47,923 nucleotides of DNA from Desulfuromonadales bacterium (GTDB lineage Bacteria; Desulfobacterota; Desulfuromonadia; Desulfuromonadales; BM103), in NCBI GenBank assembly GCA_035269105.1, contig DATFJP010000134.1, positions 1-47,923 of the forward strand, read 5' to 3'. Position 1 is the first letter of the stretch, and each line of letters opens with the position of its first letter. Under the pieces are notes generated by a model. That model was not told where the DNA came from and ran no database searches. It was given only the letters and a program-made list of their open reading frames with translations. Shown here piece after piece: positions 5,041-47,300 of this stretch. The position numbers and the translations under genes are program-made.

Positions 5041-5197
5041 AACAGGGCACTCCTTTCCCGGGAAAAAATCGATCGTTCTGTGACTAAAAGGCTAACAACC
5101 GGGCAAGGAATGTCAAATCGACCCTCCCTACGGAGAACGGTCCTGACCGGGTATGGAAAATTCTCTCGACATGAGAAACAGGGGTTGTCCGGCAAAT

Positions 5198-6121: not shown

Positions 6122-6126
6122 GGTTT

Positions 6127-21378: not shown

Positions 21379-21407
21379 TTGACTTTTTGGGTATGGTTAA
21401 TGCTAAT
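21379..21407 (+). promoter_or_regulatory. Candidate nifB promoter (sigma70-like TTGACT-N17-GCTAAT, overlapping a weak -24/-12-like GGGTAT-N5-ATGC)
   Basis: Sequence match only. Lies after the tandem terminators and 130-160 nt upstream of the nifB ATG. Confidence 0.3.
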
Positions 21408-21471
21408 TGCTTGAAGCAGGACATAAGGGAAACCGCGATACAAAGCCGTGTCGCCTTTTATCTGGCAAAGA

Positions 21472-21508
21472 AGCCCCGCGAGCAGCCGCTCGACGGGGCT
21501 TTTGATTT
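21472..21508 (+). terminator. Terminator-like hairpin in the nifB 5' leader (possible attenuator)
   Basis: AGCCCCGCGAG-CAGCCG-CTCGACGGGGCT (11 bp with one bulge) followed by TTTGATTT. Ends 29 nt before the nifB ATG. Confidence 0.5.
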
Positions 21509-21536
21509 CTGGACGAACAACGAAAGGATCAGACCG

Positions 21537-22415
21537 ATGGCGACTGGCTGCCCGATGATGAAAATGCAAAACACCGAACATCCCTGCTTCGGCGGCGACC
21601 ATGCCCAGGCGGGACGCATTCACCTGCCGGTAGCGCCTGGCTGCAACATCAAGTGCGGTTTCTGCGAGCGGCGCTTCGACTGTGCCAACGAGAGCCGGCC
21701 GGGCGTGACCAGCCGGGTGCTGACTCCGGAGCAGGCCCTGCAAAGGGTGCGCCTGGTCAAGGGCCATATGCAGCGCCAGACCGGCCCGGAACTCAAGGTG
21801 GTCGGCATCGCCGGTCCCGGCGATCCGCTGGCCAATCCGAAGACCTTCGAAACCTTTGAACAGGTCAGGCAGGAGTTCCCCGACCTGCACCTCTGTCTTT
21901 CGACCAACGGTCTGCTGCTCACCGAGCATCTCGACCGGCTGGTCGCACTCGGGGTGCAAAGCGTCACGGTGACGATCAATGCCCTTACCGCGGCGAGCGG
22001 GGCGAGGGTTTACGAGTGGGTTCGCTTCAAAGGCGAAAAGCTGACCGGTGAAGAAGGCGCCGCCCTGCTGCTCAAGCGCCAGCTGGAAGGGGTCCGGTAC
22101 GCGGCGGCAGCCGGCATGATGGTCAAGGTGAACCATGTCACCATTCCCGGCGTCAACGATCATGAAACCCTGGACCTGGCCGTCAAGGTTCGGGGCCTGG
22201 GCGCGGCGGTGATGAACATTATCCCGGTGATCCCCATCGGCATCTTCAAGGACATCGAGCCGCCTGATGACGCAACCCTGGAGATGGTGCGCAACCAGGC
22301 CGAGCTGGTCGTTTCCCAGGCCCGTCACTGTCGGCAGTGCCGGGCGGATGCCGCCGGAGTGGTCGGCCGGGACATCGATCTGGACCAGCTGGAAAACCGC
22401 CGCCTGGTCGGGTAG
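21537..22415 (+). CDS. nifB: FeMo-cofactor biosynthesis radical SAM protein NifB (minimal form, no NifX-like domain)
   Basis: 292 aa from ATG 21537 (AAAGGA RBS). HPCF motif, CNIKCGFCERR (CX3CX2C), GIAGPGDPLAN and C-terminal HCRQCRADAAG. The track start at 21387 would translate a terminator-like hairpin. Confidence 0.9.
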   Translation: MATGCPMMKMQNTEHPCFGGDHAQAGRIHLPVAPGCNIKCGFCERRFDCANESRPGVTSRVLTPEQALQRVRLVKGHMQRQTGPELKVVGIAGPGDPLANPKTFETFEQVRQEFPDLHLCLSTNGLLLTEHLDRLVALGVQSVTVTINALTAASGARVYEWVRFKGEKLTGEEGAALLLKRQLEGVRYAAAAGMMVKVNHVTIPGVNDHETLDLAVKVRGLGAAVMNIIPVIPIGIFKDIEPPDDATLEMVRNQAELVVSQARHCRQCRADAAGVVGRDIDLDQLENRRLVG

Positions 22416-22439: not shown

Positions 22440-23495
22440 ATGCACCTTGATCTCGCACTCAAGAAATCATTCGGCCGTTTCGAATTCGCGGCCGCGTTTG
22501 CCGTTCAGGGCGAGCGGATCGGCCTGTTCGGCCCGTCCGGCAGCGGCAAGTCGACTTTCGGCAGTTTGCTGGCCGGCCTGTTGACGCCCGATTACGGCAG
22601 TATCCGTCTCGACGGCCGCTGTTTGTTCGACAGTGATAGCCGCGTCAATCTGGCGCCCGAGCGGCGCCGGGTGGCGGTGGTTTTCCAGCATGCCCATCTG
22701 TTCCCCCATCTCGACGTCCGCTGCAACCTGCTGTACGGCTATCGGCGCACGCCGGCCGACCGACGGCGGCTGAAACTGGGCGAGGTCAGCGAAGCTCTGG
22801 GTATCTGCGGGTTGCTTGAACGCCGGGTGCATGCGCTGTCCGGGGGTGAAAAACAGCGGGTGGCACTGGGCCGGGCACTGTTGACCTGCCCCGACCTGCT
22901 GATTCTCGATGAACCTTTGAGTGCACTCGACCAGCAGCTCAAGGAGCAGATCATTCCGTATCTCCGGAAAACCCTGCGCCGGTTTGCCATCCCCTACCTG
23001 TACATCTCGCATGCGCTGGACGAAATGCGCCTGCTCACCGATCAGGTGCTGCAGCTGTCCGGCGGCAGCCTGCGCCAGGTCACTGACGCCGAGACCCTGG
23101 CCCATCAGCAGATGACCACCGGTCAGCAGGGCTACCGCAACCACCTGCAGCTGACATCGCCCCGAGAGGTCGGCAGCATGCTCGGTTATCGCTGGGGGCG
23201 CAACGAACTGCTGCTCACCGATCATCCCGCACCGCAGGACGGCCTGTTCGAACTGTCCAGCCGGGAAATCCTGCTGTTCCGGAATCATCCACAGGCGCTT
23301 TCGGCGCGCAACCTGCTGGCCGGGACGGTAGTGGAACTGATCCCGCAGGGGGGGATGGTCGGCGTGGTGCTCGACTGCGACGGCGAGCGCCTGATCGCCC
23401 AGGTGGTGCGCGAGGCGGCCCTCGAACTTGAACTGGATCGCGGGCAGAGTGTGTACGCGGCGATCAAGGCCTCGGCGTTTCGACGCCTGGTCTAA
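22440..23495 (+). CDS. modC: Molybdate ABC transporter ATP-binding protein ModC (with C-terminal TOBE-like domain)
   Basis: 351 aa. Walker A GPSGSGKST, signature LSGGEKQRV, Walker B LLILDEP, plus a C-terminal extension of about 120 aa. Adjacent to modA and modB. Confidence 0.88.
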   Translation: MHLDLALKKSFGRFEFAAAFAVQGERIGLFGPSGSGKSTFGSLLAGLLTPDYGSIRLDGRCLFDSDSRVNLAPERRRVAVVFQHAHLFPHLDVRCNLLYGYRRTPADRRRLKLGEVSEALGICGLLERRVHALSGGEKQRVALGRALLTCPDLLILDEPLSALDQQLKEQIIPYLRKTLRRFAIPYLYISHALDEMRLLTDQVLQLSGGSLRQVTDAETLAHQQMTTGQQGYRNHLQLTSPREVGSMLGYRWGRNELLLTDHPAPQDGLFELSSREILLFRNHPQALSARNLLAGTVVELIPQGGMVGVVLDCDGERLIAQVVREAALELELDRGQSVYAAIKASAFRRLV

Positions 23496-23506
23496 CCTTC
23501 CATCGA

Positions 23507-24271
23507 ATGAGGCAACTGTTTATGAAGACAATGACGATAGCCATCTGGCTGCTGATAAGTTCTCTGCTGGGCCCAGTCAGCGCTGCTGGTGAGGAGGTTC
23601 GCATCTCCGCTGCGGCCAGCCTGACCGATGCGGTGAAAAGCCTGACCCTGGCTTACCGGCAAGACCATCAGGACGTTGAGATCCTGCTGAATTTCGCACC
23701 GTCGGGGACCCTGGCCAAGCAGATCGCGGCTGGCGCCCCGGCCGACATCTACATTTCCGCCAACCCCAAATGGATGGATCATCTGCGCAGCCAGAGCCTG
23801 GTGGACGAAGCCTCCCTGCAGGTCCTGCTGCATAACCGGCTGGTGGTGGTCGGCTGGTCGCAGCCGGTCACCAGCATGGCGGACCTCACTGGTATGTCCC
23901 GGATAGCCCTGGCCACACCATCATCTGCGCCGGCCGGCCGCTACGCCGAGCAGGCCATGCAGGCCGCGGGGCTGCATGGCGCCCTGCTGACGGAAGGCAA
24001 GCTGGTGCCGACCAGGGATGTCCGCCAGGCCCTCCTGCATGCCGACCGCGGCGAGGTTGACGGCGCCTTCGTCTATCGCACCGACGCCCTGCTGGCGCAG
24101 CGGGCGGTCATTCTCTTCGAGGTGCCCCAGGAACTTTATCCGCAGGTGGTTTACCCGGCGGCGCTGACCATCTCCGGCGCCGGACGACCGGTGGTCCGCA
24201 AAATGTACGATTACCTGACCGGAGCCGAAGCCAGCAAGCTCTTTGCGGGCTACGGATTCCTGACGCCATGA
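23507..24271 (+). CDS. modA: Molybdate ABC transporter periplasmic binding protein ModA
   Basis: 254 aa. Signal peptide, then ISAAASLTDA, APSGTLAKQI and DIYISAN motifs typical of ModA. Start could instead be ATG 23522. Confidence 0.88.
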   Translation: MRQLFMKTMTIAIWLLISSLLGPVSAAGEEVRISAAASLTDAVKSLTLAYRQDHQDVEILLNFAPSGTLAKQIAAGAPADIYISANPKWMDHLRSQSLVDEASLQVLLHNRLVVVGWSQPVTSMADLTGMSRIALATPSSAPAGRYAEQAMQAAGLHGALLTEGKLVPTRDVRQALLHADRGEVDGAFVYRTDALLAQRAVILFEVPQELYPQVVYPAALTISGAGRPVVRKMYDYLTGAEASKLFAGYGFLTP

Positions 24272-24281
24272 AGGTTGGTGC

Positions 24282-24977
24282 ATGCCTTATCTGACGCCGA
24301 CCGATGTGCAGGCGCTGTGGCTTTCGGCCAAGGTGGCGACTGCGGCGACGCTGGTCGCCCTGCCGACGGGATTTGCGCTGGCCTGGCTGCTGGTGTTCAG
24401 CCGCATGCGCGGCAAAGCATTGCTCGACGGGCTGGTCAACCTGCCGCTTGTGCTGCCGCCGGTCGTGGTCGGCTACCTGCTTCTGCTGGCGCTGGGCCGA
24501 CAGGGTCCGCTCGGGGCATTTCTGCAGGATCTCGGCGTCAGGGTGGTGTTCGACTGGAAGGGGGCGGTGATCGCCTGCGCGGTGATCGGTCTGCCGCTGA
24601 TGGTGCGTTCGGTCCGGTTGGGAATGGAACAGATCGATCCGCATCTGCTGCAGGCGTCGAGAACTCTCGGCGCCGGCTGGTTCGACACTCTGCGTTCGGT
24701 GGTGCTGCCGCTGTCAGTGCCGGCTCTGGTGACCGGCAGCACGCTCTGCTTCGCCCGCAGTCTGGGGGAATTCGGCGCCACCATCATCCTGGCCGGCAAT
24801 ATCCCGGGAGCGACCCAGACTCTGCCGCTGGCGATCTTCGACTACACCAACACCCCGGGTGGCGATGCCGGCGCCCTGCGGCTCTGCATGCTGTCGATTC
24901 TGCTTTCCTATCTGGTGCTGATGCTGAATGAACTGCTGATGCGCCGTTTTCGGAAAAGGTCCCTCTCCCCCCGCTAA
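24282..24977 (+). CDS. modB: Molybdate ABC transporter permease ModB
   Basis: 231 aa with 5-6 TM segments. EAA-loop-like ASRTLGAGWFDTLRSVVLPL, and GEFGATIILAGNIPG typical of ModB/CysTW permeases. Confidence 0.88.
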   Translation: MPYLTPTDVQALWLSAKVATAATLVALPTGFALAWLLVFSRMRGKALLDGLVNLPLVLPPVVVGYLLLLALGRQGPLGAFLQDLGVRVVFDWKGAVIACAVIGLPLMVRSVRLGMEQIDPHLLQASRTLGAGWFDTLRSVVLPLSVPALVTGSTLCFARSLGEFGATIILAGNIPGATQTLPLAIFDYTNTPGGDAGALRLCMLSILLSYLVLMLNELLMRRFRKRSLSPR

Positions 24978-25153: not shown

Positions 25154-25708
25154 TCAGTTGACGTAGCCGCTGCCGATCGCCCGCCATGGCAGATCGACCT
25201 GCAGTTCGGGAACCTGTTCGGCGACCCAGGCGGTGAAAGTATTGCTGTTCGGGCCCGGGAAGACCTGGTATTCCCTGGGCCAGGGATAGCTGCGGGCGGC
25301 CTGGTCGACAGCCTCGATCAGGTGGTCGACGCCGGCGCCGCGGTGTTCCTTGAGCAGCCGCGGCTTTTCCCCGAACCAGTAGCGGTCCGGATGGTCCTCG
25401 GCGATGCGCAGCACCGGCTTGCCGCGTTTGGCACGCCAGCCCACAACTTCATAAACGGTGTAAGCTTCCGCGCCACTGCGTTTGACGGCGATCCAGGTGT
25501 GCACCGCAAACCAGCCGCGCCAACCCCAGGCGCGCGCAGCATAAACATGCAGTACCGGTTCTTCTGTGGCCTCGGCGGGCGGCGCGATCCCGGCTGGTTC
25601 CCGGCTGGCGGTGCGCCAGTCGCCCTGGCCGCTGCAGTTTGCCAGTGCCAAAACGGTCAGGGCGAGGACCAGAAAGTAGATTATGGTTTTCCAGGAAATG
25701 AATTTCAT
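25154..25708 (-). CDS. DUF3750 family lipoprotein
   Basis: 184 aa from ATG 25708. Signal peptide with lipobox LANC. HTWIAVK...YEVVGW and PGPNSNTF segments resemble DUF3750. Confidence 0.6.
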   Translation of the reverse strand: MKFISWKTIIYFLVLALTVLALANCSGQGDWRTASREPAGIAPPAEATEEPVLHVYAARAWGWRGWFAVHTWIAVKRSGAEAYTVYEVVGWRAKRGKPVLRIAEDHPDRYWFGEKPRLLKEHRGAGVDHLIEAVDQAARSYPWPREYQVFPGPNSNTFTAWVAEQVPELQVDLPWRAIGSGYVN

Positions 25709-25854
25709 CAGTCCGTCTCTCGATGGGGACAATTTTTTCAATTCTAGCGCAAAGAAGAAGGCCCGGTAAACAGGGTGCAGGACGAAAGCCGGCAAGATGC
25801 CGGCATTATGGTATCTTTAAGACTCAACCACTCATTCCAGCCGAGGAGACCGCT

Positions 25855-26190
25855 ATGCAGATTGACTGGGCCTACCTGCGCAAGGGCTGAACTTCCTGCA
25901 AGAACGCTCAGGAGTTTCTTGAGAGAAAGCAGATGAAGATTGCCGAAGCGGCCGACGCCCGCCAGGAGAAGTTCACGGCCGAACGGGCCTGGGACCTGTT
26001 GAAGGATGCTGAAATCATCGCCGTGGCCAAGGGCAAAAAGGTGATCAAATTCCAGTCGCCGGCGGACAGGGACGCGGTGCTGCAGCAGGTGATGGGGCCG
26101 AGTGGCAACCTGCGGGCGCCAACCCTCAAAATCGGCGAGCAGTTCGTGGTCGGGTTCAACGGGGAGTTGTACCAGGAGGTTTTTGGGTAG
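25855..26190 (+). CDS. ArsC/Spx/YffB-family thioredoxin-fold selenoprotein (in-frame UGA = Sec at 25888-25890)
   Basis: ATG 25855 with GAGGAG RBS (25843-25848). MQIDWAYLRKG-TGA-TSCKNAQEFLERKQ continues in frame into the 85-aa track ORF (25933-26190). U-T-S-C aligns with the family CxxC. The C-terminus LRAPTLKIGEQFVVGFNGELY fits the family. SECIS-like hairpins lie at 25890-25923. Confidence 0.7.
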
Positions 26191-26230: not shown

Positions 26231-26585
26231 TTAACCGTTAGGTCGCGGGGTTGCGCCCCCGCGCGACGCCCTCCTTTTCTTGCTCGGCCAAGAAAAGGAG
26301 GCAAAAGAAGGCCGCCCGACTGTCTTGCCTAGCACTGCCTGCGGCAATGCTTGGTGCCCTCCGCCGAAAAGATGAACGCCGGCCGGGCGAAAACTCGGCT
26401 GCGCCTCAGACAATTCGCCCAGCTGATCGGCGTTAATCAATTCGGCTCCGGCTGCGGCAGACGGGGAGGGAGGGCACCCGCAGGGCGACCTTTTTCGGGC
26501 GTGTTTCTTTGCTTACTTTCTTTTGCACGAGCAAAGAAAGTAAGGCGTCGGGCGGGGGCGCAACCCCGCGACTTTAGGTCGTTAA
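26231..26585. repeat. Inverted pair of two-hairpin repeat units, about 70 nt each, flanking about 210 bp
   Basis: Left unit: GTCGCGGGGTTGCGCCCCCGCGCGACGCC plus hairpin CTCCTTTTCTT/AAGAAAAGGAG. Right unit (reverse complement): GTCGCGGGGTTGCGCCCCCGCCCGACGCC plus hairpin TTACTTTCTTT/AAAGAAAGTAA. Confidence 0.7.
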
Positions 26586-26606: not shown

Positions 26607-27893
26607 CTATCCCTTGGCACGATAATCGGTGGCGGCGTTCGCTGCCTCGAACAGAAAATAACACCCCCCCTCATACAACACATCATTCTTCAACGCATTT
26701 CCAACCTGTTCCCAGTTCGGGAAACCGCGAACGACCAGTCCTTTGTGCAGACGATGGGCCAGCGCCTCGCAGTGGCCATTGCCGATGATCAGATCGTACT
26801 CATCGGCATGTGCTGCGGCGTCTTCCAGGTCGCCGACCAGAGCGCGGTCTGCGGCGATATCTGCCAGCTGCGGCGAATCGACCGTGCTCAGGGCGACCGT
26901 GACCCGGCCGCCGGCTTCGCTCAGGGCGGCGCATATGCCGGCCAGATGGTCCGGTTCCCCGACCGCCAGAATTCGCGTCTGGCCGAGGGAGAAATGGCTG
27001 TCGAGCAGGGCGTCCTGCAGGCGCAGACGCCAGCGGACGACATGGGGTCCCGGAGTGGTGCGGCCGGAGGCGGCAAGCAGAATGGCAACCAGCTGGTCGG
27101 TGGCCGCCAGACCCTGCAGGTGGGACAGGTGATGATGCACGATCTGCGGGTTCTTTTCCTGCAGGGCCGCAGCGCATTTCTGCATGGAGGCGCCGATCGT
27201 CAGAACCAGGCGCGCATCCCCAAGCCCGCGAATTTGCTCCACGCTGATGCCGCCGCTCGACAGGGCATACTGTTTCTCACTGAGGTGGCCGTCCAGCGCC
27301 GTGGACAGATCCGGCAGGGCACAGGCCTGGAAGCCGAAACCGGCGACCAGTTCCTTGAGCTTCTCCACCTCGATCGGCTGCAGGCTGACCTGCGGCAGGA
27401 TCACGAGCTTCTGCGGATCGACTTTTGCGGCCGGCTCGACCAGCTGCTCGAGCATGGCCCGGCAGGCCAGCGCCCAGCCGCTTTCCAGGCCGCCTTCGTA
27501 GTCAGGGGTATTGACGTAGACCAGGGGGGCGTCGATTTTGCCGGCGATGCCGCGCAGGTCATCGCCCTTGGTCTCCGGCAGGCCGGTGCTGTGCAGACCG
27601 ATCAACGGCGGGGAGACCTTGGTGGTGACGTTTTTGACGGCCTCGACGATGCTGTAGTCGCCGCCGTCCAGTACGGCGATCGCATCAGTGACTGCGGTGG
27701 TCTGGATGGCGATCGGTTCGCAGAAATGACGGGTGAAGTAGACCTTGGTGAAGCTGGTGCAGCCCTGACCGCCGTGCATCAGCGGCATACAGCGGTCGAC
27801 GCCCATGAAGGCCAACGCTGCTCCCATCGGCTGGCTCAGCTTGCACGGGTTGACCTGCAGCGGCTTGGCCGCCTTGCCGCTGACTATTGCCAT
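26607..27893 (-). CDS. nifN: Nitrogenase FeMo-cofactor biosynthesis scaffold subunit NifN
   Basis: 428 aa. PCKLSQPMGAALAFMG and LMHGGQGCTSF motifs. Start overlaps the nifE stop by 10 nt. Confidence 0.93.
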   Translation of the reverse strand: MAIVSGKAAKPLQVNPCKLSQPMGAALAFMGVDRCMPLMHGGQGCTSFTKVYFTRHFCEPIAIQTTAVTDAIAVLDGGDYSIVEAVKNVTTKVSPPLIGLHSTGLPETKGDDLRGIAGKIDAPLVYVNTPDYEGGLESGWALACRAMLEQLVEPAAKVDPQKLVILPQVSLQPIEVEKLKELVAGFGFQACALPDLSTALDGHLSEKQYALSSGGISVEQIRGLGDARLVLTIGASMQKCAAALQEKNPQIVHHHLSHLQGLAATDQLVAILLAASGRTTPGPHVVRWRLRLQDALLDSHFSLGQTRILAVGEPDHLAGICAALSEAGGRVTVALSTVDSPQLADIAADRALVGDLEDAAAHADEYDLIIGNGHCEALAHRLHKGLVVRGFPNWEQVGNALKNDVLYEGGCYFLFEAANAATDYRAKG

Positions 27894-29233
27894 GGCGGCC
27901 TCCGTGCGGCTAATCGGAACACCGGGTTCTGCAGCGCGTTCTTCAGGTCCTCGGCGAGGTTGACCAGTCCGGCGTAGCCGCCGTAGCTTTTCTTCTTCTC
28001 CTGGTTGACGTCGGCAAAGGCGATGCCCTGCTTGATCGCGGTGTAGAGGGAGCGGCCGCCGGCCAGCAGCAGGTCGGCGCTCCGCTCCCTGATCAACCTG
28101 GCCTGCTCGGCACCGGGGTTCATCATCAGCACGCCGTCCTCGCCCAGCACGCGGCGGGCCTGGGCGCGGTCCTCCTCGGTGGCTTTCTTGACCGCGGTGG
28201 CGACCACCTCGATGCCGAGGTCCTGCAGCGCCGCGGCGATCGACCAGGTCTTGTTGCCGCCGGTGTTGAGCACCGCTTTTTTGCCGGCGAACACCTGGCG
28301 ATAGGGCGCCAGCTGTTTTTCGAGCCTGGCCTCCTCGCGGGCGACCAGCTGGCGGGTGCGGGCGACCAGGTCGGCATCGCCGAGAGCTTCGGCGATCGCC
28401 AACAGGCCGTTGGAGGTATCGCGCTTGCCGTAGAAAGAGAGGGATATCCAGGGGATGCCGTACTGCTCCTGCATTTTGCGGGTCAGCGAGACCAGGGACT
28501 TGGCGCAGACGATGACGTTCAGTCTGGCGCGGTGGGCGGTGCGGATATCGGCCACCCGGCCGTCGCCGCTAAGAGTCGACAAGACCCGGATGCCCAGCTC
28601 TTCCAGCAGCGGGGTGTACTGCCACATGTCGCCGGTCACGTTGTATTCGCCAATCAGGTTGATGTCAAAGGGGGTGGTGAACTCCGGTTCGCGGGTGCCG
28701 ACCAGGTGCTGCAGCACGGCTTCGCCGCCGAGCCGGCTGCCGAGGTTCTTGCTGCCGACGAAGCCGGGGGCGTGGACCGGGATCATCGGCAGATGATGCC
28801 GGTCTGCCGCCTGCCGGCAGACCAGGTCGAGATCGTCGCCGATCAGGGCGGTGACACAGGTGGCATAAACGAACACGGCCTCGGGAGCATAGTGTTCGAC
28901 GACATAATCGATGGCCCGGGCGAGCTTTTGTTCACCGCTGAAGATCACGTCGTTGAGGCTGACGTCGGTGGTGAAGCCGACCTGGGTCAGGTCGCGCCCC
29001 GGCCAGCTGCTGCGGGTCGCGCGGGTCTCCCAGCTGGTGCCGAGACAGGTGATCGGCCCGTGGACCAGGTGAGCGGCATCGGCGTAGGGGAAAAGGGCGA
29101 TCTGCGCCCCTTCGAAGGCGCAGCCGCCGGTCGTTGCCCCCGGTGTCGGGGCGTTGCAGGCGGTCTGGCGGGCGGCGTTGTGGCTGCAGGAACTCTCGAC
29201 GAGCAGTTCGCGGATCTTCGGCTTGCCGGCCAT
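27884..29233 (-). CDS. nifE: Nitrogenase FeMo-cofactor biosynthesis scaffold subunit NifE
   Basis: 449 aa. GCAFEGA, LVHGPITCLG and ATCVTALIGDD motifs (NifD-like). AAGGAG RBS. Confidence 0.95.
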   Translation of the reverse strand: MAGKPKIRELLVESSCSHNAARQTACNAPTPGATTGGCAFEGAQIALFPYADAAHLVHGPITCLGTSWETRATRSSWPGRDLTQVGFTTDVSLNDVIFSGEQKLARAIDYVVEHYAPEAVFVYATCVTALIGDDLDLVCRQAADRHHLPMIPVHAPGFVGSKNLGSRLGGEAVLQHLVGTREPEFTTPFDINLIGEYNVTGDMWQYTPLLEELGIRVLSTLSGDGRVADIRTAHRARLNVIVCAKSLVSLTRKMQEQYGIPWISLSFYGKRDTSNGLLAIAEALGDADLVARTRQLVAREEARLEKQLAPYRQVFAGKKAVLNTGGNKTWSIAAALQDLGIEVVATAVKKATEEDRAQARRVLGEDGVLMMNPGAEQARLIRERSADLLLAGGRSLYTAIKQGIAFADVNQEKKKSYGGYAGLVNLAEDLKNALQNPVFRLAARRPPWQ

Positions 29234-36713: not shown

Positions 36714-37199
36714 TCAGGAGCCGCAGTCAGCCGGGTCGCCCTGCAGCTTGGCGATGGCATGGGGGATCGCCGGCCAGATCACGGCCAGATTTTCGACAGC
36801 GCCCTGCGGACTGCCGGGCAGGTTGACAATCAGCGTACCCTGCCGGATGCCGGCGATGGCCCGGGAGATGACGGCATGCGGCGTCACCTTGAAGCTGGCC
36901 ATCCGCATCGCCTCGGCAAAGCCGGGCAGTTCCCGGTCGATGACGCGGCGGGTCGCCTCCGGGGTAACGTCGCGCGGTGAGACCCCGGTACCGCCGGTGG
37001 TCAGAATCAGGTCGGGGGCTTGCCGGTCGACCCAGTCGGTCAGGGCCGCGGCAATCCGCTCCCCGTCATCCGGCAGCAGGGCCGTCTCCCGGACAGCGAC
37101 ACCCTGCCGGGCCAGCCAGTCGGCAAGGGCCGGTCCGCTCAAATCTTCCCGTTCGCCCCGCGCGCCTTTATCGCTCAATGTCAGGATCACGACCTTCAT
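36714..37199 (-). CDS. mogA: Molybdopterin adenylyltransferase MogA
   Basis: 161 aa from ATG 37199. LSDKGARGEREDLSGPAL, TTGGTGVSPRDVTPEA, LPGFAEAMR and LPGSPQG parallel E. coli MogA. Confidence 0.85.
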   Translation of the reverse strand: MKVVILTLSDKGARGEREDLSGPALADWLARQGVAVRETALLPDDGERIAAALTDWVDRQAPDLILTTGGTGVSPRDVTPEATRRVIDRELPGFAEAMRMASFKVTPHAVISRAIAGIRQGTLIVNLPGSPQGAVENLAVIWPAIPHAIAKLQGDPADCGS

Positions 37200-37310
37200 G
37201 GTTGAATAGCGATTCCATTGAAATTGCGGAAATACCCAGGGAAAGGCGGGTTGCATTTCCCTTCCCCCTTGCTGCGGCTGCTGCAGGCCGCGACGACCCG
37301 TCCCATTGCC

Positions 37311-38357
37311 TCAGCCTCCGATGGTCGCCATGGCGAATGGTTCAGGGCCGGAGGTCTGGCCGGACAGATCATGACAGGCCTCCTTGGCACCGATCACGGC
37401 GAGAAGCCTGGTCTGCAAGGTGTGTTCATCACCAGAGAGAAAAGGCTTGAGGTCCATGGCACTGCCGGCGAACAGGCAGCTCTTGGCCATGCCGGTGGCG
37501 GTGACCCGGATCCGGTTGCAGGAGCTGCAGAAATGTTCACTGATCGGGGTGATGACACCGATCGTGCCCAGGGCCCCGGCGATCCGGAAGGGTCTGGCCG
37601 GCCCGCACATGCGGCTGGTCGGCAGGGGCATGAGCGGAAACCGCTGCTGCAGCCGGTGCAGGATAGCGGCGCCGGGGACGATACGACTGCGCCAAGCCTT
37701 CTCGCGAATGGTCGGCATGTACTCGATGAAGCGTACCGACCAGGGCTTTTCCAGGCTCAGCGCGGCAAAATCCTCGACCTCATGATCATTGACGCCGCGC
37801 ATGACGACCATGTTCAGTTTCAGCTTCAGTCCGCTCCGTTCGGCGGTGTCAATGCCTTGCCAGACCTGCCTCAGCTCGCCGCCGCGGGTGATTTTTGCAA
37901 AGGTGGCCGGCTGCAGGGAATCGAGGCTGATATTGAGCCGGTCGACGCCGGCTCGTTTGAGTTTTTGGGCTGCGGCAGCGAGCAGGATGCCGTTGGTGGT
38001 CAGCGAAACCTCGTTCAGCCCGGGGATGGCACTGAGCTGCTCGAGAAAACGGATCAGGCCTTTACGGACCAGCGGTTCGCCGCCGGTGACCCGGACTTTT
38101 TCGATCCCCAGGCCGACGGCCGCGCGGGAGATTTTCAACAGCTGCTCGTAGCGCAGGATGTCCGCATGGGAGCAGGCAGCGACCCCTGCGGCCGGCATGC
38201 AGTAGCAGCAGCGCAGATTGCAGCGGTCGGTCACCGACAGGCGCAGGTAGTTGATGGTCCGGCCGAAACGGTCCTGGTTGACAGGAGTACAGGCGTCTTT
38301 GCCGTCGGCAACCGCAGGAGCGTTCTGGATGAGGTGTCGATCTTCAGCCTGTGGCAT
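37311..38357 (-). CDS. moaA: GTP 3',8-cyclase MoaA
   Basis: YLRLSVTDRCNLRCCYC (CX3CX2C), second cluster CSSCNRIRVTATG, C-terminal GG. Start uncertain: ATG 38357, 38408 or 38435, the last overlapping the narK stop. None has a strong RBS. Confidence 0.85.
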   Translation of the reverse strand: MPQAEDRHLIQNAPAVADGKDACTPVNQDRFGRTINYLRLSVTDRCNLRCCYCMPAAGVAACSHADILRYEQLLKISRAAVGLGIEKVRVTGGEPLVRKGLIRFLEQLSAIPGLNEVSLTTNGILLAAAAQKLKRAGVDRLNISLDSLQPATFAKITRGGELRQVWQGIDTAERSGLKLKLNMVVMRGVNDHEVEDFAALSLEKPWSVRFIEYMPTIREKAWRSRIVPGAAILHRLQQRFPLMPLPTSRMCGPARPFRIAGALGTIGVITPISEHFCSSCNRIRVTATGMAKSCLFAGSAMDLKPFLSGDEHTLQTRLLAVIGAKEACHDLSGQTSGPEPFAMATIGG

Positions 38358-38412
38358 CTGCGTCCGTGCACATGGGGTGCGCTGTCCTGACTGCCGGCTT
38401 TGCCGCATTGGA

Positions 38413-40017
38413 TCAGGGGTTTTGGATGTAAGCATTTTTCCGGGTGTAGAACCACCAGTTTAACACCAGACAGGCAAAATAGAAGACTGCAAATCCGTAC
38501 AGGGCATATTCCGGGGTGGTCGCCTTGATCTGTTCACCGAACACCTGGGGAATGATGAAGGCACCGTAGGCGGCGACCGCCGAGGTCCAGCCAAGCACCG
38601 GCCCGGCCTGCTCCTTGTCGAAGATGATTGCGATCGAGCGGAAGGTCGAACCGTTGCCGACGCCGGTCGCAGCGAACAACAGGATAAACAGGATCAGAAA
38701 GGGCACGAAATAGTTTTCCGGGGTCGGCGAGGCATAGGCGGCCTGCATAAAGTACGCGCAGCCAAGCGCCGACACAATCATGACGAGCGACACCCACTGG
38801 GTGACGATGGCGCCGCCCAGCTTGTCGGCGATCTTGCCGCCGACCGGGCGGATCAGGGCGCCGATAAAAGGTCCCATCCAGGCGAACATCAGGGCGCTGG
38901 GGCCATTGGGGTTGATGGTGTCGTGGGTCAGCGTACCGTCGACCATGATATGCGAGAACCCGAAAATCACCTTGATCGACAGGGCGAACGCGGCCGAGTA
39001 GCCGATAAAGGAGCCGAAAGTCATGGTGTAGATGACGGTCATGGCCCAGGTGTGCTTGTTGCCGAAGATCCGATACTGCCGATCGAGGTTGGCACGCAGG
39101 TTGCCCCGGGTCAGGTACTTCATGCCGAACACCGTGGCGGCAATCACCAGCGGCAGGACGATCCACTTGCTGAGCAGGCCGAGGCCCACCGGCTTCGGCA
39201 GCAGCAGGTAGAGGCCGATGGCCGCGGTGACGAAGGCGATCGACAGCAGGCCGGTGATTTTGCCGAAGGCGACCAGGGGGGAGCCGAGGTTCGGCGAAAC
39301 CGCCTCCGTGGTGATGTTATTCATGCCGAAATAGCTGGCGATCGCCAGGGGGATCAGCAGCAGCAGCCAGACATAACCGGCGTTTTGAATATAGGTTTCG
39401 GTGCCGGCCGGGATCTTGCCGATCAGGGTGCCGCTGGTATTGATCAAAGTCTGCGGGTCGCCGCCGAAGACGCCCATGGTCATCACCAGCGGGATCAGAA
39501 TCTGCATGGTGGTGACGCCGAAATTGCCGAGGCCTGCGTTGAGGCCCAGCGAGGTGCCCTGCACCCGCTTGGGGAAGAAGAAGCTGATGTTGGACATGGA
39601 CGAGGCGAAGTTGCCGCCGCCGATCCCCGAGAGCAGGGCGAGCAGATAGTAGATTTCGATGGGGGTTCCCCGGTTCTGCAGGGCGATGCCGGTACCAAGA
39701 GCCGGCAGGATCAGCAGTGCGGTTGTGAAGAAGATGGTGTTGCGGCCGCCGGCGATGCGGATCAGGAAGGAACTCGGTATGCGCAGGGTAGCGCCGCTGA
39801 GGCCCGCAATCGCCGACAGGGTGAACAGCTGCGCCTGGCTGAAGGGATAGCCGAGGTTGAGCATCTGCACAGTAATGATGCTCCAGTAGAGCCAGACGGC
39901 GAAACCGCAGAGCAGGCTGGGAATGGATATCCACAGATTGCGATTGGCGATCTTTTTCCCTTGCGATTCCCAGAACTGCTGGTCTTCCACATCCCACTGG
40001 TCGAGGTTGATCGGCAT
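38413..40017 (-). CDS. narK: NarK2-type nitrate/nitrite transporter (MFS)
   Basis: 534 aa with 12+ TM segments. N-terminus W.VEDQQFWESQGKKIANRNLWISIP is typical of the NarK2 subgroup. nar operon context. Confidence 0.88.
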   Translation of the reverse strand: MPINLDQWDVEDQQFWESQGKKIANRNLWISIPSLLCGFAVWLYWSIITVQMLNLGYPFSQAQLFTLSAIAGLSGATLRIPSSFLIRIAGGRNTIFFTTALLILPALGTGIALQNRGTPIEIYYLLALLSGIGGGNFASSMSNISFFFPKRVQGTSLGLNAGLGNFGVTTMQILIPLVMTMGVFGGDPQTLINTSGTLIGKIPAGTETYIQNAGYVWLLLLIPLAIASYFGMNNITTEAVSPNLGSPLVAFGKITGLLSIAFVTAAIGLYLLLPKPVGLGLLSKWIVLPLVIAATVFGMKYLTRGNLRANLDRQYRIFGNKHTWAMTVIYTMTFGSFIGYSAAFALSIKVIFGFSHIMVDGTLTHDTINPNGPSALMFAWMGPFIGALIRPVGGKIADKLGGAIVTQWVSLVMIVSALGCAYFMQAAYASPTPENYFVPFLILFILLFAATGVGNGSTFRSIAIIFDKEQAGPVLGWTSAVAAYGAFIIPQVFGEQIKATTPEYALYGFAVFYFACLVLNWWFYTRKNAYIQNP

Positions 40018-41598: not shown

Positions 41599-42276
41599 TT
41601 AACCGGCCTTCCGCTCCCGGTACCAGGTCACGACCTGCCACGGCCGCGCGAGGTAGGTCAGCGGCACACTGATGACGTGCACCAAGCGGGAAAAAGGCAG
41701 CAGGGCGAGGATCAGGAAGGCATTGAAGGCATGCAGCTTGACCACTGCCGGCATGGCCGCCAGGTACTCGACCTGCGGATCGAATTTGACCAGTGACCAG
41801 AGCCAGGGCGTGGCCGTATGCAGGTACCAGACCGAGCCCCAGCGCAGGCTGAAGGCGATGTAGACCCCGGTGGCAACCTGCAGCAGCAAAGCCGCCAGGA
41901 CCAGCCAGTCCATGACGGTGGTCGCCGCCGAGACCCGGTGGTTGACGGCGCGTCGGACCATCAGCAGCGCCACTGCGATCACGGTGCTGACTCCCAGAGC
42001 CAGGCCGGTGACTTCAAGCAGGTAGAGCCGGAACGGCCGGCCGAGCAGGGCCCCCCAGCCGGCCGGAAACAGAAACGCCAGGAAATGGGCCAGGAGAATA
42101 ATCAGGATGGCGTAGTGCCAGGGGACCGAGCCCCAGTAGAGCGAGCGGCTCTCCAGAAATTGCGAGGAATGCGAGGACCAGGAATAGCGATCGACACAAT
42201 AGCGATACAGGCCGACCCCCACCATTAAATTTACCGCAACATAGGGAAAAACGCCGAACAGGATCAGATCGCTCAT
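41599..42276 (-). CDS. narI: Respiratory nitrate reductase gamma subunit NarI
   Basis: 225 aa with 5 TM segments. N-terminal FGVFPY...; conserved His-containing helices (WHYAIL, KLHAF, RLVHV). Confidence 0.9.
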   Translation of the reverse strand: MSDLILFGVFPYVAVNLMVGVGLYRYCVDRYSWSSHSSQFLESRSLYWGSVPWHYAILIILLAHFLAFLFPAGWGALLGRPFRLYLLEVTGLALGVSTVIAVALLMVRRAVNHRVSAATTVMDWLVLAALLLQVATGVYIAFSLRWGSVWYLHTATPWLWSLVKFDPQVEYLAAMPAVVKLHAFNAFLILALLPFSRLVHVISVPLTYLARPWQVVTWYRERKAG

Positions 42277-42857
42277 GATAAAGACTCCTTTTGCCGGTCC
42301 GGGATCGGTCGCGCGTCGTCGCCGGCCAGGCTGTCGTTCAGAAAAGTCTGCAGGGCCTTGAGGAGGTGGAGATAGGCAGAATCCCCGGTTTCGATCCCCC
42401 GGGTCATTTTCTCCAGGGCGGGCAGCAGGCCGTCCCGGATGATCTCCAGGCGCGCGCCCTGCGCATCGATGGCGCCGATGAAGCGCAGGACTTCGCAGAA
42501 ATGGTCGGGAAGGTCGCTGGCGGCGGCGAAGCCGTGGTCACGGTAGATCTCCTGCAGCTTGATCATGAAGAAAGTGCGCTGTTGGCTCTCCCCGCACAGT
42601 TGATAGCCGACATAGGGGTGACAGGCCGCCTGCAGGTCGAAGCTGTTGGTGAAGGCCTCTTCGACGGCGGTGGGCGCGCTGGATCCGACATACTGCAGGA
42701 AGGGCTCCAGCTGTTTGCGGCCTGCGGGGCTGAATTGATCCAGATGCGTCGCACAGGCGGCCGCCCGGGCGGCGATGCGCTCGTCCGGATAGCTCAGCAA
42801 GGCGGCAAACTGCCGGCAGATGTCCTGATGAAGGGACAGTGCGTGCATGGCTACCAC
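42273..42857 (-). CDS. narJ: Nitrate reductase molybdenum cofactor assembly chaperone NarJ
   Basis: 194 aa, TorD/NarJ-like and helical. 4-nt overlap with narI and 7-nt overlap with narH. Confidence 0.85.
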   Translation of the reverse strand: MVAMHALSLHQDICRQFAALLSYPDERIAARAAACATHLDQFSPAGRKQLEPFLQYVGSSAPTAVEEAFTNSFDLQAACHPYVGYQLCGESQQRTFFMIKLQEIYRDHGFAAASDLPDHFCEVLRFIGAIDAQGARLEIIRDGLLPALEKMTRGIETGDSAYLHLLKALQTFLNDSLAGDDARPIPDRQKESLS

Positions 42858-44338
42858 CGTCGCTTCGGCGGGCGGCGGTTGCCGAAGCCCATATGCCGAC
42901 GATGCTGTTCGGTCTCTCCCGTCGCCTCGATGGCCTGTTCCCGCATCATCGGCGGGATCACTTTGCGTTCCCGCAGCTTGGTCAGGGCGGTCATCCGGTA
43001 GATCGCCTCGATATCGGCGACGCTGACGCCGGCGGTTTCACACGCTTTCGCCACTTCGCCGGCCGGCACGTCGCCGACGCTGACCTCGCGACGCTGCAGC
43101 CGTACGGCGATCAGCTTGCGGTAGACAGCCCGGACCTCCTCGGTGTTGCCGCCGGCAAACAGGCCGGCAAGGTATTGCATCGGCAGCCGGGCCTGTTCGA
43201 GGGTCGTGAAGAAGTCCTCGGCCAGCTGCTGGTTGCCCTCGTGGGCCTTGGACAGCACCGGCAGCAGCGGCGGCACGTAGAACAGCATGGGCAGGGTTCT
43301 GAATTCGGGATGCAGCGGCAGGGCGATCGCCCACTCCTTGACAAACCGAAACACCGGTGAACGCTGCGCCGCCTGCAGGACCTGCTCGGCGATGCCGGAG
43401 CGGCGGGCCTGCGCCTGCACCTCGGGATCGTTGGGGTCGAGAATCAGCTCACGCTGGGCCGCGACCAGGTCCTGGTCGGCCCGGCCGGCGACCTCCTCGA
43501 TGCGGTCGGCGTCATAGAGCAGCACCCCCAGGTAGCGGATGCGGCCGACGCAGGCCTGGAAACAGGCCGGGCTCTCGCCGGCTTCCTGGCGGGGATAGCA
43601 GAGGATGCATTTCTCCGATTTGCCGCTCGACCAGCCGTAGTAGGTTTTCTTGTAGGGGCAGGCCGAAACGCACATCCGCCAGCCCCGGCACTTGTCCTGA
43701 CTGATCAGGACGATGCCGTCCTCGCCCCGTTTGTAGATGGCCCCGGAGGGGCAGCCGGCGACGCAGCCGGCGTTCAGGCAGTGGTTGCAGATGCGCGGCA
43801 GGTAGAACATGACCAGCTTCTCGACGGCGAACATCTGCCGCTGCTCTTCGGCGTCTAGCTGGAGTACGCCGGGATCATTGGCGGCATAGATGTTTGATCC
43901 GGACAGGTCATCGTCCCAGTTCGGGCCGGCTTCAATCTTCATCGGCTTGCCGCTGACCATGGAGACCGGCCGGGCGGTCGGCTGATCGTCGCCGGCCGGG
44001 GCGCTGGTCAGGTGATCGTAGCGGTAGGTGAATGGCTCATAGTAATCGTCCATGGTCGGCAGGGCGGGGTTGTGAAAAATCTTGCCGAGCAGCCCGCCCT
44101 TGCCGCCGAGCTTCAGCTTCACCTGGCTGCCGGTCTGTTCCCAGCCGCCGCGGTATTTGTCCTGATCCTCCCACTGGGTCGGGTAGCCGGTGCCGGGCTT
44201 GGTCTCCACGTTGTTCCACCACATGTATTCGGCTCCCTGGCGATCGGTCCAGAGATTCTTGCAGGCGATGCTGCAGGTATGGCAGCCGATGCATTTGTCC
44301 AGGTGGAAAACCGATGCGATTTGTGCGCGTACGTTCAT
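42851..44338 (-). CDS. narH: Respiratory nitrate reductase beta subunit NarH
   Basis: 495 aa. Fe-S motifs CIGCHTCSIACK, CNHCLNAGCVAGCPSGAI, CRGWRMCVSACPY and CILCYPR. Confidence 0.95.
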   Translation of the reverse strand: MNVRAQIASVFHLDKCIGCHTCSIACKNLWTDRQGAEYMWWNNVETKPGTGYPTQWEDQDKYRGGWEQTGSQVKLKLGGKGGLLGKIFHNPALPTMDDYYEPFTYRYDHLTSAPAGDDQPTARPVSMVSGKPMKIEAGPNWDDDLSGSNIYAANDPGVLQLDAEEQRQMFAVEKLVMFYLPRICNHCLNAGCVAGCPSGAIYKRGEDGIVLISQDKCRGWRMCVSACPYKKTYYGWSSGKSEKCILCYPRQEAGESPACFQACVGRIRYLGVLLYDADRIEEVAGRADQDLVAAQRELILDPNDPEVQAQARRSGIAEQVLQAAQRSPVFRFVKEWAIALPLHPEFRTLPMLFYVPPLLPVLSKAHEGNQQLAEDFFTTLEQARLPMQYLAGLFAGGNTEEVRAVYRKLIAVRLQRREVSVGDVPAGEVAKACETAGVSVADIEAIYRMTALTKLRERKVIPPMMREQAIEATGETEQHRRHMGFGNRRPPKRRW

Positions 44339-44365
44339 GATCGAGGCTCCTCGTTCCGGGTCGGG

Positions 44366-47300
44366 TTACCAGTTCGGCTCCCCCTGGAGTTTGCGCACCA
44401 GGATGAAGGTGTCGCGGTTGGCGCCGGTCGGGCCCCAGTAGTTCCAGGCGTAGGTGAACTGACCGTAGCCGCCGAGCATCAGGCTCGGCTTGAGGCGGAT
44501 GCGGTTGAGGCTGTTGTGGCCGCCGGCCCGCCGGTTGCCGCGCAACGGTGATTTGGGGACGCCAATGGTCCGCTCCGGAGAATGGTAGAGGAAGGCGATG
44601 CCCCGCGGCAGGCGAGCGCTGACCACCGCCCGGGTGACCACCACGCCGTGATCGTTGTAGACCTCGACCCAGTCGTTGTCGACCACGCCGATTTCCTCGG
44701 CATCGTGCTCGTTGAGCCAGAAGGGGTGGCAGCCGCGCGACAGGGTCAGCATGCGGTGGTTGTCGCCATAGGTGCTGTGGATGCCCCACTTGCCGTGCGG
44801 AGTCAGGTAGTTGAGCATGATGCTCTTGCCGCCGGTTTTAGTGACCACCAGGTCCTGCAGGGTGTTCGGGTCGGGTTTCGGCTTGTAGGTCGGCAGGTGC
44901 TCGCCGGCGGCGATATAGCCCTGGTGGTCGAGGTAGAAATGCTGGCGGCCGGTCAGGGTCCGCCAGGGCACCAGCCGTTCGACGTTCAGACAGTAGGCCG
45001 AGTAAGCCCGGCCGTTGCCGGTCAGGCCCGACCAGACCGGGCTGTTGAGCAGCCGGCGCGGCTGGCGGTCGAGATCGGCGAAGGTGGTGCGCACGTCGCG
45101 GCTGCCGGCTGCCAGGTCGGTCAGCGGCAGGCCGACCTTCTGTTCCTCAGCGGCATAGGCCCGATGCGCCATTTCGCCGTTGGTCTCCGGCGCCAGCTGC
45201 AGGATCGCGTCGGCGGCATCCTTGGCCTCGGCCAGGGCCGGATAGGTTTTGCCTTCCCAGGTCACCGATTTATGGCTCTGGGCCATTGCATCGTAAACGT
45301 CATCCACCGGCCAGGACAGGCCGTGGGCGCCGATGCCTTCCCGGGCGCCGGGACCGAGGGAGATGAAGCGGTTGTAGAGGTTCTTGTAGTCCCGTTCGAC
45401 CACGGCCAGGCCGGGCATGGTCTGGCCGGGAATCGCTTCGCATTCGCCTTTGCTCCAGTCCTTGATCTCCGGCTGGGCCATTTCCGCGGGCGTGTCGTGC
45501 TGCAGCAGCACGGCGACGACGTCGCGCACCGGGTCCGGCAAATGGCTCGCCGCCAGCTCGCTGACCTTTTTCGCCAGGCCCTTGAAGATGTCCCAGTCGC
45601 TCTTCGACTCCCAGCAAGGGGGCACGGCCGCCTGCAGGGGATGGATGAAGGAGTGCATGTCGGTGGTGTTGAGGTCGTCCTTCTCGTACCAGGTGGCGGT
45701 CGGCAGGACGATATCCGAGTAGAGCGCCGAGGTGTCCATGCGGAAGTTGATGTCGACCACCAGGTCGAGCTTGCCCTCGGCCGCTTGCTTGCGCCAGACC
45801 ACGTCCTTGACCGACTCTTCGGCGGTCTCCGGGGCGACCGTGTTGGTGTGGGTGCCGAGGTAGTGCTTGAGGAAGTACTCGTGGCCCTTGGCGCTCGACA
45901 TCAGGGCGTTGCCGCGCCAGATGATCCACAGCCGCGGCCAGTTCTCCGGGGCGTCGGGATCCTCGACGGCGAATTTCATCTGTTTGTCAGTCAGCTGTTT
46001 GACCGTCCAGTCGACGATTTCCTGGCTGCTGCCGGCACCGGCGGCTTCGGCCTGGCGCACAACCTCCGCCGGGCTGCGGTCGAACTGCGGGTAGAAGGGC
46101 AGCCAGCCGCAGCGTACAGCCCGAACCTGGTGGTCCATGGTATGCCCGGCGGTGATCTTGTTCTGCTCCGCGACCGGCTGGATCAGCTTTTCGTCCGCGG
46201 TGCGTTCGTAGCGCCACTGATCGCTGTGCACGTAATGGTAGGAAGGGGCGTTCTGGAAACGCGGCGGCTTGTTCCAGTCGAGGGCACCCATGATCGTCGC
46301 CCAGGGCGCCATCGGCGCCAGCTTCTCCTGGCCGACGTAGTGATTGAGGCCGCCGCCGTTTTTGCCGACGCAGCCGCACAGCATCAAGGCCGAAATGCCG
46401 GCCCGGTAGATCAGGTTGGCGTGGTACCAGTGGTTGACGCCGGCGCCGATGATGATCGAGCATTTGCCGCCGGTCTTTGCGGCGGTGCCGGCCCATTCGC
46501 GGGCGAACTGCAGCACGTTGGCGCGATCGATGCCGGTGAATTTCTCCTGCCAGGCCGGCGTGTAGACGGCGTCGTCGTCGTAGCTTTCGGGATAGTCGCC
46601 CGGCAGACCGCGATCGACACCGAACTGGGCCATCAGCAGATCGAACACCGTGGTCACCGGGACCCGGCCCTCGGCCGTTTCCAGGTAGCGCACCGGCACG
46701 CCGCGCGACACGGGCCGGCCGGTGCCGAAATCGTCGAAGGCTACCGGCAGGACCTCTTCGGCGCCATCGATCAGGGTCAGCGCCGGGGCGATCTCGCTGC
46801 CGTCTTTGCCATCCTTGAGCTGCAGGTTCCATTCGCCCTTTTGCTGCTGCCAGCGGAAGCCAAGGGTGCCGAGCGGCATGCGCGGCGCATCGGCGGCTGC
46901 ATCCCAGACCAGGTATTTGAAGGCGGCGTTTTCTTCATCCCGGTAACCGTCCACCGTCGCAGCCGAAAGCATCCGGCCGGCGCGGTGATTGTCCCCCTGG
47001 TCATCGAGCCGGACCAGGAAAGGGGTGTCGCTGTAGCGTTTCAGGTAGTCGAGAAAGTAGGGGGTTTGCTGCCGGTGGTGGAACTCGCTGAGGATGACGT
47101 GGTTGACCGCCATCCAGAAGGCGCCGTCCTGGCCGGCATGGGCCGGGATCCACCAGTCGGCGTGTTTCGAGGTCATGCTGAAGTCGGGGGAGAGGACCGT
47201 GACCTTGGAGCCGTTGTGGCGGGCCTCCACCAGGAAATGGGCGTCGGGCGTGCGGGTCATGTTGACGTTCGAACCCATCACCGCGATGTACTTGCTGTTG

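Follow-up and report, generated by a model that had tools for sequence, protein, structure and literature searches.

The window analysed here, a stretch of 47,923 nucleotides from a Desulfuromonadales bacterium (GenBank assembly GCA_035269105.1, contig DATFJP010000134.1, forward strand), contains a gene at positions 25855-26190 that is interrupted by one in-frame TGA and very probably encodes a selenoprotein of the known family NF041106. The frame of 111 codons is opened by ATG 25855-25857 and terminates with TAG 26188-26190. It reads MQIDWAYLRKG, the TGA at 25888-25890 and TSCKNAQEFLERKQ, and then runs without interruption into an open reading frame (ORF) of 85 codons that begins with ATG 25933. 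The codons directly 3' of the TGA, ACT TCC TGC, specify T-S-C. In the mechanical ORF list, only the 85-residue ORF is present. The exact 85-residue product is also encoded on six public metagenome contigs, and on each of them the gene call consists of the truncated ORF only, with the same start. The initial annotation had described the upstream ATG, the GAGGAG six nucleotides ahead of it, the TGA followed by T-S-C and the single listed ORF, and all of these sequence statements are correct. The features of the gene and its surroundings are summarized in Table 1.

Table 1. Features of the NF041106 gene and of neighbouring genes in the window
Feature	Position	Strand	Remarks
Shine-Dalgarno-like GAGGAG	25843..25848	+	6-nt spacer to ATG; GGAG-type motifs equally spaced in most relatives
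Full coding sequence of the predicted 111-residue selenoprotein	25855..26190	+	M1...U12-T-S-C15...G81-P-S-G-N-L-R87-A-P89...G111, TAG; based on translation, NF041106 match, family alignment and variation mainly at wobble positions to either side of the TGA
UGA, predicted selenocysteine residue 12	25888..25890	+	First position of the U-x-x-C redox motif
TGC, Cys15	25897..25899	+	Presumed resolving cysteine of U-T-S-C; Cys in 99/103 relatives; aligned to Spx Cys13
Putative SECIS, upper hairpin	25907..25923	+	Stem CUCAGGA (25907-25913)/UCUUGAG (25917-25923); apical loop GUU (25914-25916), starting 23 nt after the UGA
Tentative lower SECIS stem	25892..25938	+	CUUC (25892-95) and CUGC (25896-99) with GCAG (25929-32) and GAAG (25935-38); seen in minimum free energy folds
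Codons for G81-P-S-G-N-L-R87-A-P89	26095..26121	+	Most conserved motif of the family
85-residue ORF of public gene callers	25933..26190	+	Annotation artefact without the redox centre
nifB-like radical S-adenosylmethionine gene	21387-22415		
modCAB	22440-24977	+	
DUF3750 gene	25154-25795	-	Between modB and the selenoprotein gene, divergent from the latter
nifN/nifE	26607-29233	-	Downstream of the selenoprotein gene
mogA/moaA-like genes	36714-38435	-	
narIJHG	41599-47902	-	

Conservation of the in-frame TGA

The interrupted codon is TGA in 108 of the 111 related loci and Cys in the other three; the loci comprise 31 from genomes, one per species, and 80 from metagenomes. All 31 species loci carry the TGA, within the context MQIDWAYLRKG, TGA, x-S-C. 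They belong to Malonomonas, Desulfuromusa, Geopsychrobacteraceae, Desulfobacterium, SAR324 and many Desulfobulbaceae. Of the metagenome loci, 77 have the TGA. Part of them were retrieved through the C-terminal motif [MLI]G[PR][ST]G[NT]LRAP and hence independently of the N-terminus. The N-termini of the TGA loci are divergent, for example MKVEWAYLRKG and MSKHINWGYFRNG, each directly followed by the TGA. Among 103 non-redundant relatives of the selenocysteine (Sec) form, the TGA is invariant. The initial annotation proposed a search for Cys orthologues aligned at the position of the TGA, and such sequences exist: Cys occupies the Sec site in L039/P0094 (AGCTSC), L085 and L108 and in the further database proteins P0111 and P0117 (KHCDSC). 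The locus of the Cys form P0094/L039 has an unrelated gene context.

The same comparison bears on the possibility that the TGA is a true stop codon, generated by nonsense mutation or sequencing error in a pseudogene of a Cys-type ArsC-like gene. A single sequence is unable to exclude such an origin, and the window shows no sel genes. However, the same TGA recurs in independent loci from several orders with the frames intact on both sides, the copies on the six metagenome contigs match exactly, and a covarying hairpin follows the codon. As judged from the comparative sequence data, the pseudogene is refuted.

In the 103 non-redundant Sec forms, the entropy of the ten codons ahead of the UGA is 0.54 at the first, 0.29 at the second and 1.44 at the third codon position, and residues W5, Y7 and R9 are invariant. 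The variation is thus mostly restricted to the wobble position, which indicates that the upstream codons are translated and under purifying selection. The annotated start Met27, which is codon +15 after the UGA, is not conserved, and the matching codon in relatives usually specifies I, V or L. These observations decide against the 85-residue ORF as the real gene, according to which the upstream 78 nucleotides would be an untranslated leader and the TGA would be irrelevant. The short ORF is the one called by the mechanical list and on the six public contigs, and the purine-rich segment GAGAGAAAG precedes its ATG. However, the hidden Markov model of NF041106 requires residues 3-106, and the product of the short ORF is devoid of strand 1 and of the redox motif and, when searched alone, gives no Pfam match above threshold. 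The 85-residue-only gene is effectively refuted. The initial annotation had named missing in-frame conservation of the 78 nucleotides as a possible refuting point; the segment is instead conserved in the manner of coding sequence.

The UGA may alternatively be read as Trp, Cys or Gly, either by near-cognate or suppressor decoding or in a reassigned code. Several database entries show W at the site, and the Sec machinery of the source genome is not among the genes observed in the 48-kb window. However, the DNA of the one W entry that was verified, P0015, has TGA at this position, and the W results from a gene call in which TGA is read as Trp. In the other database entries, W at the site likewise appears to stand for a TGA that was mistranslated as Trp. 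TGA is the ordinary stop codon of 12 of the 27 Pfam-confirmed genes in the window and the commonest ordinary stop there; therefore, the code is not reassigned and the recoding is local. Furthermore, the redox Cys at the homologous position of the Cys forms and of Spx makes a classic Sec/Cys pair, the element downstream of the UGA has the geometry of a bacterial Sec insertion sequence (SECIS), and SelD and further selenoproteins are present in the relatives Desulfotalea psychrophila and Desulfuromonas acetoxidans (PMC1794560). Together, these points make decoding of the UGA as an amino acid other than Sec highly improbable.

Many public entries of the family (P0002-P0036 and L038, positions 937-945) have Trp at the active site, and others are truncated to 80-100 residues. 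The Trp stems from translation of the contigs with a genetic code in which TGA means Trp, as verified on P0015. Protein databases thus misrepresent the family systematically.

In four members, L023, L025, L073 and L092, the second cysteine is absent whereas the Sec codon is kept, and the motifs are U-V-S-S, U-A-S-S, U-T-T-A and U-N-S-G, respectively. Sec would accordingly seem to be the essential residue. The sequences of these members hint that Sec can work without an intramolecular resolving Cys.

The hairpin downstream of the TGA

The minimum free energy (MFE) fold of positions 25885-25945 places the hairpin 25907-25923 atop the lower stem, with an energy of -19.2 kcal/mol and z = -2.1; seven of 200 shuffled sequences are as stable. 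The signal of the single sequence on its own is only modest. Through comparison, the combined signal of the UGA and the hairpin exceeds by far what is expected by chance, since the TGA is invariant in the 103 Sec forms and the hairpin covaries. The 48 nucleotides after the UGA have a mean z of -1.15, whereas for four control segments taken from the same genes the values are about 0 (paired tests, p <= 1e-10, values that are inflated by the phylogenetic relatedness of the compared sequences). When the MFE hairpins were pooled over the 103 sequences, with a minimum stem length of 4 bp, the loop centre was located 21-25 nucleotides after the UGA in 79 of them. The first loop base is almost always G, in loops such as GUU, GGU, GGC and GGA.

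In a gapless alignment of 101 sequences, compensatory double changes are found at six of the seven base pairs of the hairpin 25907-25923 and amount to 44 cells. The covariation score of 0.247 compares with 0.149 +/- 0.008 for shuffled alignments, is reached by none of 500 shuffles and lies above all slid controls. The covarying stem variants include CUC/GAG, CCC/GGG, GCG/CGC, GUC/GAC and CUU/AAG. Third-codon-position variability is lowered at codons +7 to +10 after the UGA. Compensatory changes from U-A to C-G or G-C at A3 columns 24 and 38 (window positions 25908 and 25922) alter residue 23 from E to G or from E to A/D, so that FLE becomes FLG in the former case; examples are L046, L050, L055 and L064. 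Therefore, the RNA structure constrains the protein sequence at this residue.

The criteria for a bacterial SECIS were taken from PMC13188914. Taken with its lower stem, the element falls within them: it has a G-first loop of 3 nucleotides, a stem of 7 bp and a spacing of 23 nucleotides, and the extended element has an energy of -14.0 kcal/mol. It resembles the fdhF-type SECIS of Escherichia coli, as captured by the bSECISearch consensus, in being a stem-loop within the coding region with a G-first GUU loop 23 nucleotides from the UGA (range 16-37 nucleotides) and a 7-bp upper stem. In contrast, the sequences of the two elements are unrelated, and the Desulfobulbus clade of NF041106 uses a shifted register. 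The CUGC/GCAG segment of the lower stem (25896-99/25929-32) is paired in 53% of the family cells, and pair 15-45 switches between C-G (16) and U-A (16). The lower stem is likely a clade-level feature.

The hairpin of the Desulfobulbus clade, GCACAGGNUGUGC (A3 columns 22-34; L010-L029, L083, L116 and L117), has its loop centre approximately 3 nucleotides closer to the UGA. An outer stem is present in many of these hairpins, such as UUCGUGCA...UGCAACGAA in L026. The hairpin is nearly invariant and specific to the clade, and it was rejected as a structure of the whole family (hairpin B). The SECIS is thus remodelled within one protein family.

Two hairpins had been drawn in the initial annotation, and both can be formed by the sequence. 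The one at 25907-25923 is the covarying element described above, whereas the first, at 25890-25917, has no covariation support: 441 of 500 shuffles reach its observed score, and it was rejected.

The Cys forms for which DNA sequence is available retain six of the seven SECIS stem pairs in L085, four in L039 and two in L108. The codon at the site in L085 is TGT, and its six pairs may be the remnant of a recent conversion from Sec to Cys. A scan of the whole window against Rfam at gathering thresholds returned no matches.

Several points weigh against the decoding of the UGA as Sec, in addition to the relatedness of the compared sequences. The upper hairpin alone has an energy of -7.1 kcal/mol, slightly short of the criterion of -7.5, which is passed only together with the partly supported lower stem. 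RNAalifold returned no column-wise consensus fold for the complete family, since the hairpin of the Desulfobulbus clade is shifted and nearly invariant. The 48-kb window contains no selA, selB, selC, selD or tRNA-Sec gene, and no second selenoprotein gene was found in it. The reviews consulted report no experimental selenium incorporation for any NF041106 member. Set against these points are the TGA in 108 of 111 relatives, the true Cys homologues, the full-length family match, the coding-type upstream codons and the covarying hairpin. We therefore consider it very probable that the UGA is read as Sec under the direction of the SECIS at 25907-25923, in agreement with the hidden Sec codon of the initial annotation.

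In the proposed mechanism, translation would initiate at ATG 25855. The hairpin 25907-25923, possibly extended by the lower stem, would recruit SelB with Sec-tRNA(Sec) to the UGA by means of its G-first loop 23 nucleotides downstream, and Sec would be inserted in place of chain termination. The source organism presumably has the capacity to decode Sec, and the insertion there presumably depends on SelB.

Family, fold and putative redox activity

The conceptual product, with U replaced by C, matches the NCBIfam model NF041106, "ArsC family (seleno)protein", with 125.8 bits against a cutoff of 85, and residues 3-106 of 111 cover profile positions 1-107 of 107. Members of this family have a U/C-x-x-C motif behind strand 1 that begins with Sec or Cys, here U12-T-S-C15. 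Residues G81, G84, L86, R87, A88 and P89 are invariant in the family alignment. The match to the Pfam ArsC family PF03960 (11.7 bits, cutoff 24) is below threshold, and the two families are related at the superfamily level only. Searches of the family profile against the PDB returned Spx (E = 7e-8), YffB (1.5e-5) and ArsC-related proteins (2e-4). In the profile alignment, U-T-S-C falls on C10-T-S-C13 of Spx, and L-R-A-P falls on L-R-R-P of the Spx segment G-L-L-R-R-P.

The structure was predicted using AlphaFold2 from P0002, the closest full-length database homologue (64% identical, W at the Sec site), together with 24 relatives. The model of P0002 has a pLDDT (predicted local distance difference test) value of 95.1 and contains a strand at residues 2-8, residue 12 immediately before a helix formed by residues 13-24, and a beta-hairpin at residues 54-66 between strand 2 and the LRAP loop. 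The best PDB matches found by Foldseek for the model are Spx (probability 1.00), ArsC-related proteins and glutaredoxins, with template modelling (TM) scores of about 0.5. From the profile matches and the model of its homologue, the protein is a divergent member of the Spx/ArsC/glutaredoxin-like superfamily, in keeping with the label "distant ArsC homolog" used in 2006. The profile alignment and the model agree with the ArsC/Spx fold, and with the superposition of U-T-S-C on C-T-S-C of Spx, given by the initial annotation. The R87-A-P89 loop probably corresponds to the cis-Pro loop of the thioredoxin fold.

The protein shares with Spx of Bacillus subtilis (PDB: 1Z3E, 3GFK, 6GHB) the thioredoxin-like fold of the ArsC superfamily, the C-T-S-C position at the N-terminus of helix 1 and the L-R-R-P loop. 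It differs in the presence of Sec instead of the first Cys, in a sequence identity of only about 15-18%, and in being shorter with another central subdomain. Spx is the best match in both the profile and the Foldseek searches, and its CxxC switch aligns exactly with U-T-S-C, as would be expected if the protein were an RNA-polymerase-binding transcription factor of the Spx type with a Sec-based redox switch. However, the scores are below the cutoffs of the Spx/MgsR model TIGR01617 (23.4 vs 75 bits) and of the Spx equivalogs NF002459 (13.7 vs 123 bits) and NF009885 (15.1 vs 152 bits). In addition, the low TM scores, the predicted beta-hairpin 54-66 and a length about 20 residues below that of Spx speak against such a regulator, which we regard as very unlikely.

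The product of the gene would instead be a divergent thioredoxin-like protein in which Sec12 and Cys15 of U-T-S-C are positioned at the N-terminus of helix 1, and the R87-A-P89 loop would be located beside them. The motif may cycle between the selenol/thiol form and a Sec12-Cys15 selenenylsulfide, so that this small protein would function in redox reactions. On the basis of motif, fold and analogy to Spx, the most defensible mechanism that we can infer is that of a small selenol/thiol oxidoreductase.

ArsC binds arsenate through an arginine triad. The glutaredoxin-coupled ArsC proteins (PF03960) belong to the same superfamily, and their nucleophile, Cys or Sec, occupies the corresponding site behind strand 1; Sec-containing members are known. 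The annotated genes around the selenoprotein gene show no ars operon context. In Global Ocean Sampling data, two selenoprotein families were distinguished, "Arsenate reductase 1, UxxS" and "Arsenate reductase 2, UxxC" (PMC2398784). The Sec form of ArsC corresponds to the former, in contrast to the UxxC motif of the protein described here, which is Spx-like. In 2006, Desulfotalea psychrophila and Desulfuromonas acetoxidans were reported to have selenoproteins termed "ArsC-like" and "distant ArsC homolog" (PMC1794560). These selenoproteins are probably NF041106 proteins, to judge by taxonomy and naming rather than by sequence comparison. NF041106 appears as "Arsenate reductase-like protein, UxxC" in PMC9312934 and in a 2026 review (PMC13188914), according to which the functions of such bioinformatically identified families are largely uncharacterised.

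The member encoded in the window agrees with NF041106 in the full-length match, in the position of U-x-x-C and in the bacterial SECIS directly downstream, and it falls within the same phylogenetic range of Desulfuromonadales, Desulfobulbales, other Desulfobacterota and SAR324. Particular to it are the position in a molybdenum island with nif, mod and nar genes and the truncated public annotation, and nothing essential differs. The result is thus an annotation correction for a catalogued selenoprotein family and provides no new mechanism. The correction matters since the redox centre is lost from databases, in which the locus and many of its relatives are represented by a truncated ORF of 80-100 residues or have Trp at the active site. 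With approximately 110 loci, 97% of them Sec forms, and a covarying SECIS in two registers, NF041106 is almost obligately Sec-containing in Desulfobacterota and SAR324. The family is a useful marker of Sec decoding. It is also a tractable small model for the evolution of SECIS inside coding sequence, because compensation within the stem in some cases replaces the encoded amino acid.

Genomic neighbourhood and the relation to NifO

Positions 15283-47902 of the window form a dense molybdenum island, which contains, in addition to the genes listed in Table 1, nifHDK, nifX-like genes, a homocitrate-synthase-like gene, a xanthine-dehydrogenase-type molybdenum enzyme and two narK-like genes of the major facilitator superfamily. 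Genes for nitrogenase and respiratory nitrate reductase are located side by side. The selenoprotein gene lies between modCAB on the same strand and nifN/nifE on the opposite strand, as the initial annotation had placed it. The DUF3750 gene starts at 25708 in public calls (184 residues) and not at 25795, and its adjacency to the selenoprotein gene is confined to contigs of the same organism and is not seen in relatives. Since the genes on both sides are on the opposite strand, the selenoprotein gene is probably monocistronic and not co-transcribed with nif or mod.

Neighbouring nif or mod genes occur in the window and at L001, L004 and L005 only, among approximately 111 other loci that include many close Desulfuromonadales-type homologues with 5-kb flanks. 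In L004 and L005 (Geopsychrobacteraceae; positions ~4898-6327), the selenoprotein gene follows a nifB-like gene on the same strand after a gap of approximately 100-160 nucleotides. This order recalls nifB-fdxN-nifO-nifQ of Azotobacter vinelandii. About 25 loci of the Desulfobulbus clade (L010-L029 and others) have a bioF-like ORF (8-amino-7-oxononanoate synthase) and then a bioG-like esterase ORF on the same strand, ~0.9-1.8 kb downstream, and at 13 loci of another clade an argC-like ORF follows the gene. The bioF-, bioG- and argC-like neighbours were named by reading their sequences and not by family search. No neighbour conserved across the whole family was found. Because the neighbours differ between clades, the context leaves the function undefined.

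We take TIGR01616 to be the NifO/nitrogenase-associated model of NCBIfam. The nine NCBIfam matches of the protein at E <= 1 include no NifO or nitrogenase-associated model. NifO, also called DraB, is an ArsC homologue encoded in nifB-fdxN-nifO-nifQ and linked to the partitioning of molybdenum and to nitrogen fixation when nitrate is present (PMC5249018). Like NifO, the protein in the window is a small member of the ArsC superfamily encoded in a nif cluster near nifB, and the window adds nitrate reductase and molybdenum-cofactor genes; unlike NifO, it has Sec, and it lacks a match to the NifO-type model. In this lineage, it could be a functional NifO analogue, a redox protein of the nif cluster that influences molybdenum trafficking between nitrogenase (iron-molybdenum cofactor, FeMo-co) and nitrate reductase (molybdenum bis-pyranopterin guanine dinucleotide, Mo-bisPGD). 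Such a role, which is compatible with the selenoprotein assignment, agrees with the position of the gene between nifB-modCAB and nifEN, with the presence of moaA, mogA, narK and narGHJI in the same window and with the nif linkage kept at three other loci. In contrast, nif and mod neighbours are absent from all of the other loci of the family, about 108, the other clades have bioF/bioG-like or argC-like neighbours instead, and the flanking genes of the opposite strand argue against co-transcription with nif or mod. We consider the NifO-like role unlikely. It had been offered in the initial annotation as conceivable, and for the family it is unsupported.

The linkage to nif is limited to one small lineage and is too narrow to define the function of NF041106; the position in the molybdenum island may or may not be functionally relevant. 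It is conceivable, albeit doubtful, that the selenoprotein was recruited into the nif cluster, beside nifB, modCAB and nifEN, in a single Desulfuromonadales lineage (the window, Malonomonas and Geopsychrobacteraceae) as a selenium-dependent counterpart of NifO that tunes molybdenum allocation or redox protection between nitrogenase and the respiratory nitrate reductase encoded nearby. If true, this recruitment would tie selenium status to nitrogen fixation.

A scan for sigma-70 promoters and terminators around the gene gave nothing informative on the plus strand, and a quick inspection by eye revealed no sigma-54 (GG-N10-GC) promoter upstream of it. Between the selenoprotein gene and nifN, which are convergent, the intergenic region contains a perfect 12-bp inverted repeat, CTCCTTTTCTTG-ctcggc-CAAGAAAAGGAG, at 26271-26300, which is preceded by an imperfect GC-rich palindrome at ~26242-26267. 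The palindrome and the inverted repeat may together form a bidirectional terminator.

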